Source: a virus. Taken from it: a stretch of 37,313 nt of DNA. The stretch lies in the IMG/VR virus record IMGVR_UViG_3300028549_002563, one strand, 5' to 3'. Under the pieces are notes generated by a model. The model had not been told where the DNA came from. It saw only the letters and a list, made by a program, of their open reading frames with translations, and did no database searches. A program made the translations under genes and the position numbers. Shown one piece after another: positions 34,751-36,670 of this stretch (position 1 is the first letter of the stretch; each line of letters begins with the position of its first letter).

Positions 34751-35215
34751 TTATAACTGATTAACAATCTCTTCTATATATTTAATTTCTTCTTCATTAA
34801 TATTATACTTTTTATATAGATAAGCATCTGTTATTGTTTTTGAATAATCTTCAGCTGGAATATATTTAAAATTTATTGAACTTATTAAAATTCCCTTAAA
34901 ACTTAAATATAATAAAAACTTAAATAACTTTGTTTTTGTATAACTTAAAAAGTTTTCTGCTTCTTCTTTATTATAAGTTGTATATAACAATAAAAATGTT
35001 TCTGATACTATTTCATTAGCTTCTAATAAAAAACATCTTGATTTTTTATCTGTTTTTGACATACAAATCTTATATTTTAAAACTTCATCTTCATTTTTTA
35101 AAACTTTATTAACATAATATTGCTTATTATTCTTACAATAAATTTTTATTAATCCTTTTTCTTCACCTTTAAAAAAACCTCTATATCCAAAGGGATTAGA
35201 TGTATATATATTCAT
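34751..35215 (-). CDS. Target-recognition-domain-like protein 2 (paralog of 35331-35825)
   Basis: Aligns with the upstream paralog across ...KYK..., F(L/N)(L/I)LY, ...(L/F)FKF(L/F)L.L... and the C-terminus LYKKYNINEEEIKYIEEIV. Confidence 0.65.
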   Translation of the reverse strand: MNIYTSNPFGYRGFFKGEEKGLIKIYCKNNKQYYVNKVLKNEDEVLKYKICMSKTDKKSRCFLLEANEIVSETFLLLYTTYNKEEAENFLSYTKTKLFKFLLYLSFKGILISSINFKYIPAEDYSKTITDAYLYKKYNINEEEIKYIEEIVNQL

Positions 35216-35337
35216 ATAATCACCCTTTTGGATGATGTTATCTCTCTCTCTCTCTCTCTCTCTCTCTCTCTCTCTCTCTCTCTCTCTGGATTAAAATTAG
35301 ATGTATATCCGAATGGATCTCTATTAAAAACTAACAT
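35212..35337 (-). CDS. Leader ORF reading through the dinucleotide tract (MLVFNRDPFGYTSNFNP-(ER)n-ITSSKRVII)
   Basis: Hand-translated base by base. The ATG at 35337 overlaps the stop of the upstream ORF (ATGTTAG). The stop TGA at 35212-35214 overlaps the ATG of the 34751-35215 ORF as ATGA. Confidence 0.35.
   Translation of the reverse strand: MLVFNRDPFGYTSNFNPEREREREREREREREITSSKRVII
35241..35287. repeat. Simple sequence repeat (TC)23T, i.e. (GA)n on the coding strand
   Basis: Read directly: 47 uninterrupted nt of alternating T and C. Confidence 0.97.
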
Positions 35338-35825
35338 TGTATAGTTTCCTCTATATATTTAATTTCTTCTTCTGTTAAATTAAATAACTTATATAATTTT
35401 TCATCATTCCATTCTTCTTTAAAACTTAATAAAGGAACAAATCTAAATGCATTAAAATTCATATCTTGTGTTTTCTTTTTTAAACTTAAAAAAAACTTAA
35501 AAAAATTAGTATTAATATAACTTATATAATTTAAACATTCTTCTTTACTTTCACTTAAATATAAAATATTAAAAGTTAAAGAACAAATATCATTTTTATC
35601 TATTAATTTAGGATTAAGTTTAAAATTATATTCTTCACTTGCTTTTGCTAAAACAACTTTATACTTATTGTTAAATCTTTCTTCTAATAAATCTTTATGA
35701 ATATATCCTATTTTTCCAAATTTAAGATATAACTTAATACTATCTTCAAAAGGTTGATTTTTATAATATAAAAAGTTAGTTGGAAATTTAGAATGAAAAA
35801 ATTCTGTATCTGTTAATGTTTTCAT
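35331..35825 (-). CDS. Target-recognition-domain-like protein 1
   Basis: The C-terminal LNYISYINTNFFKFFLSL...FRFVPLL...LYKLFNLTEEEIKYIEETI resembles the end of TaqI-like / HsdS-type specificity domains. The ATG lies 2 nt after the MTase stop and has its own GGAGA. Confidence 0.65.
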   Translation of the reverse strand: MKTLTDTEFFHSKFPTNFLYYKNQPFEDSIKLYLKFGKIGYIHKDLLEERFNNKYKVVLAKASEEYNFKLNPKLIDKNDICSLTFNILYLSESKEECLNYISYINTNFFKFFLSLKKKTQDMNFNAFRFVPLLSFKEEWNDEKLYKLFNLTEEEIKYIEETIQC

Positions 35826-35827
35826 AA

Positions 35828-36670
35828 TTATATCTCCGTGTTTAAAACTTTTTTTAATATATCAATACCTTTATTATCTCTTATAAAAACATCAAATTCA
35901 TTTAAAATTCTTTTTCTTGAAGATTTAGTTTCACCTTTATAAAACTCTTCATATAAAGTTTCTCCTGTATATTCTTTATCTATAAGAAAATACAATACAC
36001 CTCCCGCTATATCAACATTATTAAAAACTTCTTTACTACTTTTAAAGTCCTTTATATATTTAATGTGTGGATAATTTAAAAAGAAGTTTCTGAATTTATC
36101 TAATCCCTTTCCGCCTGTTAAAAATCTTGAAGGAACAATAAAACTAATATATCTACAATTCATTTCTATTGCTTGTAATATAAAATTCTGATAAATCGGT
36201 TTAGCAGATGCTCCAAATCCGCCGTCCATCATCTGATACGGTGGATTTCCTATAATAATATCAAATTCATAATTTTTAAAATAATTATCTTTTAAAGTAT
36301 CTTGGCAAATAATATTTTTACTTAATTTATCTTTAAAAAATAATAAATCATCAAAAGATAAATTAAATTTTTCAGAACAAGAACTTAATATTAAAAACAA
36401 TCTTTCAATAGTATCATTAACATTTATTTCACATATATCAGAACCGAATATAGAAGTTATAGCAATATATAAATCTTCTATATCTTTACAATTAGATAAT
36501 TTTCTTTTTAATATAGCATCTAAAAAATTACCGTTTCCGCAAGTAGGTTCAAAATAAGTAGTTTTTATTTCATAACTTTCTTTTTTATTTAAATCTAACA
36601 TTTCATTAACAATAAAATCAGGAGTATAAACTTCTCCAAGTCCTTTTATTCTTTCAGTTGTTTCTTTCAT
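35828..36670 (-). CDS. N6-adenine DNA methyltransferase catalytic module (gamma class) lacking its own TRD
   Basis: Motif I is FEPTCGNGNFL and motif IV is IIIGNPPYQ, in that order. 280 aa, which is about the size of the M.TaqI catalytic domain alone. Confidence 0.8.
   Translation of the reverse strand: MKETTERIKGLGEVYTPDFIVNEMLDLNKKESYEIKTTYFEPTCGNGNFLDAILKRKLSNCKDIEDLYIAITSIFGSDICEINVNDTIERLFLILSSCSEKFNLSFDDLLFFKDKLSKNIICQDTLKDNYFKNYEFDIIIGNPPYQMMDGGFGASAKPIYQNFILQAIEMNCRYISFIVPSRFLTGGKGLDKFRNFFLNYPHIKYIKDFKSSKEVFNNVDIAGGVLYFLIDKEYTGETLYEEFYKGETKSSRKRILNEFDVFIRDNKGIDILKKVLNTEI

Follow-up and report, generated by a model that had tools for sequence, protein, structure and literature searches.

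Does a phage locus with one gene for a DNA methyltransferase (MTase) core and two paralogous small genes behind it encode a single enzyme that can choose between two recognition subunits? This question is raised by the virus record IMGVR_UViG_3300028549_002563 of IMG/VR, a DNA stretch of 37,313 nucleotides (nt) here referred to as the window, in which the gene for the core, MTase-N, is followed by the genes CTD1 and CTD2, with a (GA)n tract between the latter two. Phage methylases are usually regarded as fixed, single-specificity restriction shields, and the ability to switch methylation specificity stochastically is ascribed to bacteria, with phasevarions and shuffling hsdS genes as examples. 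Here we favour, with moderate confidence, the reading that the locus encodes a split gamma-class methylase, in which one catalytic subunit would be served by either of two target-recognition-domain (TRD) subunits and the CTD2-type gene is tied to (GA)n. The three open reading frames (ORFs) from which an earlier note on this DNA had drawn such a proposal, of 280, 164 and 154 amino acids (aa), are all present on the minus strand (Table 1).

As the earlier note had described, MTase-N carries motif I (FEPTCGNGNFL, residues 40-50) before GNPPY (residues 141-145). It matched the Pfam families Eco57I (PF07669; 82 bits against a cut-off of 25.3, 7e-23) and N6_Mtase (33.1 bits against a cut-off of 20.4, 5e-8), as well as the PADLOC models for MTase_II (4e-31) and Type IIG methylases. 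Comparison with the sequences of solved structures revealed a marginal match to HsdM only, and the family profile reached M.BseCI, HsdM, MmeI and TaqI through the catalytic part only. Relatives of MTase-N numbered 1981. The closest full-length ones were single-chain proteins of 447-487 aa, which showed 42-48% identity and covered 98% of the query. These proteins run on past the end of MTase-N (...FD.FIRDN...IL.K...) into a C-terminal domain (CTD), in agreement with the claim that the 280-aa ORF ends where single-chain enzymes continue. The domain consists, in this order, of a linker with a PFG...F motif, a beta-rich stretch and a helical end (TKFFRFL...Q...FVP...W.D..LY.KY.L..EE..YIE). The order typical of the gamma class is found here: motif I precedes NPPY (residues 142-145), and the homolog of the recognition domain is C-terminal, being encoded immediately downstream in the window and fused in the relatives. 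Judged from its sequence, MTase-N is a complete gamma-class N6-adenine DNA methyltransferase core without a target-recognition domain.

CTD1 and CTD2 share 36% identity over 125 aa (E 5e-14), which makes them true paralogs, as had been claimed for the 154-aa ORF, and both end in LYK.(F/Y)N(L/I).EEEIKYIEE. Each aligned over its full length with the C-terminal ~170 aa of the single-chain relatives, PFG linker included, and each retains the N-terminal linker motif and the conserved C-terminal helices. A word-indexed protein search with CTD1 and CTD2 gave almost nothing, and the family was recovered by an exhaustive profile search, which found 4766 proteins with the domain. The domain is C-terminal in proteins of ~450-550 aa and also in proteins of ~1150-1430 aa that comprise, ahead of it, a ResIII helicase and an Eco57I methylase and in some cases a T5orf172 nuclease-like domain as well. 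Type ISP/IIG enzymes have their recognition domain at the same C-terminal place as the CTD of these long proteins. CTD1 also matched the C-terminal end of the Type IIG model of PADLOC (6e-10). When the CTD profile was used against metagenomes, 80 loci were obtained, in which the methylase core and the CTD almost always formed one continuous frame. The methylase family is also present in a few phages of the cultured-phage database, in every one of them as a single chain.

Structure models were consistent with this assignment. The AlphaFold2 (AF2) model of CTD1 (predicted local distance difference test, pLDDT, 88; predicted template modelling score, pTM, 0.84) had PglX/BrxX, MmeI, M.BseCI, HsdS and DrdV as its leading PDB matches (probability 0.85-0.93), all of them TRD-bearing and of gamma MTase type. 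In BFVD, the same model gave two kinds of match at E 5e-9 to 1e-5, namely the C-terminal parts of Eco57I-type MTases from phages and a phage protein of 158 aa that stands alone. At the sequence level, no match of CTD1 was found among the solved structures. We also examined the AF2 model of P0010, one of the single-chain relatives (pLDDT 92, pTM 0.89). It matched over both domains (~570-590 alignment columns) CamA (E 6e-19, TMq ~0.6) as well as M.BseCI, BrxX/PglX, BpuSI, MmeI and M.TaqI. In the models, the position of the CTD is that of the TRD of CamA, M.BseCI, M.TaqI, PglX and MmeI. The high pTM of the P0010 model argues for a fixed interface between the catalytic domain and the CTD, one that could also arise in trans. 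Since CTD1 and CTD2 are homologous to the fused domain of the single-chain relatives, and since the P0010 model matches two-domain gamma MTases, we conclude on the grounds of sequence and modelling that CTD1 and CTD2 are detached target-recognition domains, as the earlier note had supposed for the two small ORFs.

It was pertinent to ascertain if the split is conserved. The nearest methylase relative, P0005 (73% identical, 286 aa), is encoded on the 37.4-kb contig Ga0643524_0000667 from another JGI sample, hereafter the related phage. The contig is circular, with a 127-bp terminal overlap that starts in its GA tract. There the order is 286-aa MTase core, leader A, leader B, (GA)10, CTD2-type body, CTD1-type protein P0181, and then the same holin-like and Peptidase_M15_4 endolysin genes that the window has. 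Leader A (MLIYSRNIFGYTSNY), whose ATG lies 4 nt after the methylase stop, is the ortholog of a leader A in the window that is described below. Leader B has its own AGGAGG, the (GA)10 tract lies inside the CTD2-type gene, at the 5' end homologous to that of the window, and P0181 (163 aa) starts by an ATGA overlap after the CTD2-type body. Between the window and the related phage, the CTD1 types are 51% and the CTD2 types 53% identical, as compared to 31-36% for the cross pairs. This indicates that the CTD duplication is older than the split of the two phages and that both copies have been intact since. The CTDs have diverged faster than the catalytic core (~52% vs 73% identity), which is expected for recognition modules, and the order of the CTD1 and CTD2 genes is swapped between the two phages. 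A 49-nt stretch at the 3' ends of CTD2 and CTD1 of the window shows 80% identity, with ~24 identical bases encoding EEEIKYIE, an identity that the orthologs of the related phage do not have. This points to a recent gene conversion or to a short homology by which cassettes could be exchanged, with a possible link to the swapped gene order.

Conservation in the related phage bears on a pseudogene reading of the locus, in which a methylase gene that was once single-chain has broken up, the small ORFs being its decaying pieces and the repeat an incidental product of slippage. Truncated remnants of the family do occur elsewhere (L059 and P0003), as do frameshifted methylase parts (L028, L054 and L064). 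However, two phages with methylases of only 73% identity share the break at one and the same domain boundary, and no ORF is damaged: the ORFs have start codons, together with either Shine-Dalgarno-like sequences or overlaps of start and stop. Both paralog lineages have been kept as well, and CTD1 and its ortholog P0181 have the same start residue (164 vs 163 aa). The decayed fragments in homologous phages that the earlier note had considered were not seen; the related phage keeps the split and both CTDs intact, which supports the note's reading. As far as the sequences tell, the gene split is not decay, the same domain boundary and intact orthologs of both CTDs being present in a second circular phage genome. 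The pseudogene reading was rejected on this conservation and is, in our estimate, very unlikely.

The same comparison bears on a fusion of MTase-N and CTD1 through a programmed -1 frameshift of the ribosome at T_TTA_AAC, which is located 15 nt ahead of the MTase stop. This heptamer stands in the correct register, and the -1 frame is that of CTD1 and is open up to the CTD1 ATG. Against this, the window genome has 6.5 in-frame XXXYYYZ heptamers for every kb of coding sequence, and the MTase gene by itself has 8. In the related phage this position lacks a heptamer of the kind, and the next ORF is arranged differently. In addition, CTD1 has its own ATG and a well-spaced GGAGA: the ATG follows the MTase stop after 2 nt (TAA-TT-ATG), with the GGAGA 7 nt upstream, the 2-nt gap and the GGAGA having been read in the earlier note as well. 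The fusion was rejected because the window genome is rich in such heptamers and the related phage lacks this one, and we consider it hardly credible.

Between CTD1 and CTD2 lies a further ORF, leader A, which is an addition to the earlier note. Its N-terminus (NRDPFGYTSNF) repeats that of CTD2 (TSNPFGYRGFF), and both match the inter-domain linker motif of the single-chain relatives. The (GA)23 tract within it is the sole simple-sequence repeat in the 37.3-kb window and is therefore not put down to chance, and the GA tract is likewise the only one in the region of the related phage. In both phages the CTD2-type unit includes the tract, immediately before which stands a copy of the linker motif. 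This motif is duplicated in both as tandem leaders A and B, the tract being placed after leader A in the window and after leader B in the related phage, with 23 and 10 GA units, respectively. An independent short-read Logan assembly of the window phage stops inside the GA tract.

We modelled the reading frames for each number of GA units. With the 23 units of the window as assembled, the leader A ORF ends on the CTD2 ATG (ATATGA). With 22 or 25 units, leader A and CTD2 are fused in frame into a protein of 194-196 aa, and with 21 or 24 units translation meets a stop codon as soon as it leaves the tract, 25 nt ahead of the CTD2 ATG. CTD2 of the window has its own ATG downstream of the tract, preceded by a weak GGGTGA, and the tract is therefore not a simple ON/OFF switch in this phage. 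From the modelled frames, it probably modulates the isoform and the translational coupling of CTD2, and does not switch the gene off. In the related phage, 8 or 11 units give the canonical 157-159-aa protein from leader B, and the 10 units of the assembly give a 178-aa protein from leader A in which leader B is read out of frame. No product is expected with 9 or 12 units, because the CTD2-type body has no start of its own. On this modelling, the tract of the related phage is a genuine three-state switch, with two N-terminal isoforms or no CTD2 as its outcomes. The tract behind which the earlier note had placed the second TRD thus lies upstream of CTD2 in the window, where it is no simple ON/OFF control, CTD2 having its own start; in the related phage the modelled tract is such an element. 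As in phase-variable loci, a long tract is present in or at the 5' end of a coding region, and changes in unit number alter the modelled product.

Repeats were also observed elsewhere in the family. In L087 (Logan SRR5642305_71315), a G11 run (1714-1724) lies exactly at the junction of the methylase core and the CTD, and the gene as assembled is broken into 371 and 183 aa; G12 or G9 would restore the single chain. L087 is probably a phase-variable methylase of an unrelated lineage, and the position of its G11 run makes repeat-based switching at the linker recurrent in the family. Further repeats lie just upstream of methylase modules, namely (CAGC)14 in L075 (1641-1696), (CAGC)10 in L039 (8169-8208) and a 7-mer repeated eight times in L043 (8065-8120), that of L075 being located between a TATAAT-like box and the start codon. 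These are candidates for transcriptional or translational phase variation. A two-gene module is also recurrent, in which a ~230-aa protein is followed by an overlapping gene for a ~500-aa methylase-CTD protein with a different N-terminus. The ~230-aa protein resembles only the N-terminal part of the methylase family, which binds S-adenosylmethionine (AdoMet), and is devoid of NPPY. The module was seen in L084 (2492-4724, phage MT835565.1), L075 (1793-3977), L087 (17-1746) and many others among the CTD-profile loci.

Stand-alone CTDs outside the two phages were also looked for. An intact one, the 172-aa P0272, was found on 3 contigs, in a phage-like context (L090, 1950-5826; L091, 1197-5073), where it lies between a 684-aa beta-class N6_N4 methylase, with a 4-nt overlap, and a C5 methylase. 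No Eco57I-type core was present within 4 kb of P0272 in L090 and L091. Other candidates were set aside: L059 and P0003 are truncated remnants that start mid-domain, L087 is the single-chain gene interrupted at its G11 tract, and L092 is cut by the contig start. L085, L086 and L089 were set aside as too short for a judgement.

Several observations weigh against a split methylase with two exchangeable recognition subunits. Neither CTD1 nor CTD2 (searched for TaqI_C at E ≤ 1) nor any of 42 family members had a Pfam match to TaqI_C (PF12950) or Methylase_S (PF01420), so that the matches which the earlier note had expected for both ORFs did not appear and the link that it had drawn to TaqI_C and HsdS domains failed at the sequence level. 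A scan of CTD1 and CTD2 against NCBIfam and Pfam gave nothing meaningful, and a precomputed PF12950 match was found only in a more distant relative, P0089. The fold matches of CTD1 alone are weak (E 0.13-0.3), and the arrangement was seen in the genomes of two uncultivated phages only. The tract need not control CTD2 in the window, the CTD2 ATG lying downstream of it, and the leader-A form of the related phage, in which leader B is out of frame, may be non-functional. The location of P0272 beside a beta-class methylase means that stand-alone CTD proteins may have other partners or roles. Finally, a scan of GTDB genomes found no close relative and so gave no host clue.

Two of these observations, the missing Pfam match to a TRD family and the stand-alone CTD beside beta-class N6_N4 and C5 methylases, would also fit CTDs that are not specificity subunits and serve in DNA binding or regulation, the 280-aa protein being either non-specific by itself or dependent on another partner. 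We consider this improbable. The CTD genes directly follow the MTase core in both phages and are translationally coupled, and the CTDs are homologous to a C-terminal domain that is covalently attached in hundreds of relatives. Moreover, a gamma-class core devoid of a TRD has no known means of sequence recognition, as established for M.TaqI-type enzymes (PMC3874165).

If the CTDs are specificity subunits, they could also act together, dimerising like the single-TRD S subunits of 'Type 1 1/2' methylases (2M+2S), so that a bipartite site would receive two catalytic subunits. With the pairs CTD1/CTD1, CTD2/CTD2 and CTD1/CTD2, up to three specificities would then be available, and the repeat would shift their mixture. 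Enzymes composed of M and single-TRD S subunits in 2M+2S form do exist (PMC3874165). HsdS chains are among the fold matches of CTD1, albeit only at E 1.6-2.8 and TMq 0.36-0.38 (7bst_A and 2y7c_A). A protein of the family, P0125 (L083, 6-1247, JGI 3300035208), has two tandem CTDs on one chain, as AloI/CjeI-type enzymes do; its two CTDs share ~75% identity, most of the differences lying in a single central loop region. However, the single-chain relatives have one CTD, and the best structural matches are the monomeric, one-TRD enzymes CamA, M.BseCI and M.TaqI. The helices of the CTD1 model are short (≤12 residues), whereas in HsdS the TRDs are kept apart by long helices that form a coiled coil. 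Both the dimer and the mixture of three specificities that would follow from it appear unlikely to us.

On the preferred reading, in which one catalytic subunit uses either of two recognition subunits, the gene for an N6-adenine methyltransferase with an architecture like that of Eco57I, CamA and M.TaqI would be divided at the linker that joins catalytic domain and TRD. MTase-N would supply AdoMet binding and catalysis. CTD1 and CTD2 would represent two anciently diverged TRD subunits, whose linker and C-terminal helices would pack against the catalytic domain as in the single-chain enzymes. Non-covalent pairing of the catalytic subunit with either CTD would then provide two methylation specificities from one catalytic gene, and methylation of progeny phage DNA before packaging would protect it from restriction in the next host. 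Assembly in trans, differing specificities and the anti-restriction role are what we infer from the arrangement. The lack of a nearby endonuclease gene and the location between head and lysis genes would suit an orphan enzyme whose methylation marks the DNA of the progeny ahead of packaging.

Slipped-strand changes of the GA tract would alter the form of CTD2 in the window, which would be leader-extended, start-stop-coupled or uncoupled. Since a hypermutable (GA)n accompanies the CTD2-type gene, the phage population should be heterogeneous for the second specificity. We put forward more tentatively, as a possibility that we would not yet favour, that the GA tract and the two tandem, differently framed leaders stochastically alter the form in which the second subunit is made, if it is made at all, so that each burst would carry varied methylation as a viral bet-hedge against the differing restriction systems of later hosts. 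If true, a phase-variable specificity system would for the first time be known from a virus and not from a bacterium. A natural, minimal two-piece gamma-class methylase (280 aa + ~160 aa) would be handy for studies of recognition-domain docking and for engineering new specificities. The data also indicate a large, largely uncharacterised Eco57I-type family, with thousands of members, that is repeatedly under repeat control at the same linker.

The features of the locus, all on the minus strand of the window, and those of its surroundings are given in Table 1.

Table 1. Features of the methylase locus and its surroundings in the 37,313-nt window
Feature	Position	Strand	Description
MTase-N, 280 aa	35828-36670	minus	Eco57I-family catalytic subunit (predicted)
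Motif I of MTase-N	36521-36553	minus	FEPTCGNGNFL
GNPPY of MTase-N	36236-36250	minus
CTD1, 164 aa	35331-35825	minus	putative stand-alone TRD subunit; own ATG and GGAGA
Leader A ORF, 41 aa as assembled	35212-35337	minus	copy of linker/docking motif, then repeat
(GA)23 tract	35241-35286	minus (TC on plus strand)	within leader A
CTD2, 154 aa	34751-35215	minus	putative second, paralogous TRD subunit; own ATG, own linker motif SNPFGYRGFF
49-nt shared stretch, CTD2 copy	34770-34818	minus	3' end of CTD2
49-nt shared stretch, CTD1 copy	35347-35395	minus	3' end of CTD1
Sigma-70-like promoter match	36701-36729	minus	TTGAAA-17-TATTAT, extended TG; ~30 nt upstream of MTase start
Lysis pair	34039-34723		holin-like membrane protein (phrog_1322) and Peptidase_M15_4 endolysin
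27-nt inverted repeat	36730-36756 / 36823-36849		perfect; 66-nt relatively G+C-rich spacer
Tandem 19-nt direct repeats	36876-36913		AGCGGTTCTAGTCAATCAA / AGCTGAACTAGTCAATTAA

Besides the 2-nt gap between MTase-N and CTD1, the leader A ATG overlaps the CTD1 stop (ATGTTAG) and the leader A TGA overlaps the CTD2 ATG. No terminator-like site was found between the genes of the locus. As judged from this layout, MTase-N, CTD1, leader A and CTD2 are one tightly coupled operon between head genes and lysis genes. The sigma-70-like site is the best match in the region and a possible operon promoter; it is a consensus match only, and such sites overall were not above shuffled controls. No endonuclease gene adjoins the locus, its neighbours being the holin-like gene, the endolysin gene and small ORFs. 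The lysis pair lies directly downstream of the methylase operon and is placed between a Mu-F-like head gene and scaffold/capsid genes, an unusual position that is kept in the related phage. The non-coding gap directly upstream of the promoter-like site harbours the perfect 27-nt inverted repeat, which is not conserved in the related phage and might be a regulatory site, a recombination site or an origin. The same intergenic region also contains the 19-nt direct repeats, two in tandem, which may form a pair of binding sites.

The window is a complete, circularly permuted phage genome, with a terminal overlap of 221 bp, 23.9% G+C and 0 tRNA genes. It carries genes for terminase, portal, Mu-F-like head, scaffold and tail proteins and the lysis pair. 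Among 50,697 GenBank phage records no close relative of the two phages was found, and the terminase was at most 43% identical to any. An IMG/VR scan with MTase-N and the GTDB genome scan gave no close relative either, and the 80 loci from the metagenome scan were distant (≤35% identity), with neither the window phage nor the related phage among them. As judged from these comparisons, the two phages are an undescribed, very A+T-rich lineage.

How does the locus compare with known systems? The single-chain Eco57I-family MTases (447-487 aa), uncharacterised metagenomic proteins such as P0006, P0010 and P0014, have the same core (42-48% identity), linker motif, CTD and two-domain architecture. In these proteins the domains are fused, whereas in the window phage they are encoded by separate genes, the TRD gene is duplicated into diverged paralogs and one of these has a dinucleotide repeat. 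CamA of C. difficile, M.BseCI and M.TaqI are alike by fold, with sequence similarity confined to the catalytic motifs.

A separation of catalysis and recognition as such has been described, and the view of the earlier note that the arrangement was undescribed is too strong. The 'Type 1 1/2' methylases M.AhdI, M.BsaBI and M.PshAI are gamma-class enzymes with a separate M subunit and a single-TRD S subunit (PMC3874165). They resemble the window locus, whose ORFs have their own starts and are kept in two phages, in having catalysis and a single TRD on separate polypeptides. In contrast to the HsdM-like M subunit and the HsdS-like S subunit with long conserved helices, assembled as 2M+2S on symmetric bipartite sites, the window locus has an Eco57I-type core and a CTD devoid of Methylase_S similarity and of long helices. 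The 'Type 1 1/2' enzymes belong to bacterial Type II restriction-modification systems with one S gene, whereas the window locus has two alternative CTD genes, a repeat tract, no nearby endonuclease gene and a phage as carrier. A separate S subunit is also known from Type I enzymes and, among those of Type IIB/IIG, from BcgI, BaeI and CspCI, while AloI and CjeI are single chains with two TRDs (PMC3874165). In the Type IIB/IIG enzymes, too, a gamma-MTase subunit depends on a separately encoded or tandem TRD module, for which P0125 with its tandem CTDs is a parallel. They differ in having an endonuclease domain and, for bipartite sites, an S subunit with two TRDs; the window locus has no nuclease. 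A full-text literature search of incomplete coverage revealed no phage split methylase with alternative recognition subunits. What we have not found described, and regard as new, is the combination in a phage of a linker-split orphan of Eco57I/CamA type, two anciently diverged recognition genes, and a dinucleotide repeat with duplicated leaders.

Switching between multiple hsdS genes and hsdS genes that contain repeats, both in Type I systems, as well as Type III mod and Type IIG genes switched by repeats (phasevarions), are well established (PMC7383803, PMC7394358, PMC4889913). As would be the case in the window, the specificity genes vary and thereby redirect or switch a single catalytic activity, and simple-sequence repeats shift the frame (PMC7383803, PMC7394358, PMC4889913). 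Those systems are chromosomal and belong to host-adapted bacteria; their hsdS switching proceeds mostly by recombination between inverted copies, and their repeats are usually plain ON/OFF switches. In contrast, the window locus is a phage-borne, split, Type II-like orphan, and in the related phage the repeat with two differently framed leaders is predicted to give two isoforms or none. The locus suggests that a virus can use the switching logic of bacteria, in which swappable recognition subunits and a mutable repeat would endow progeny with different protective marks.

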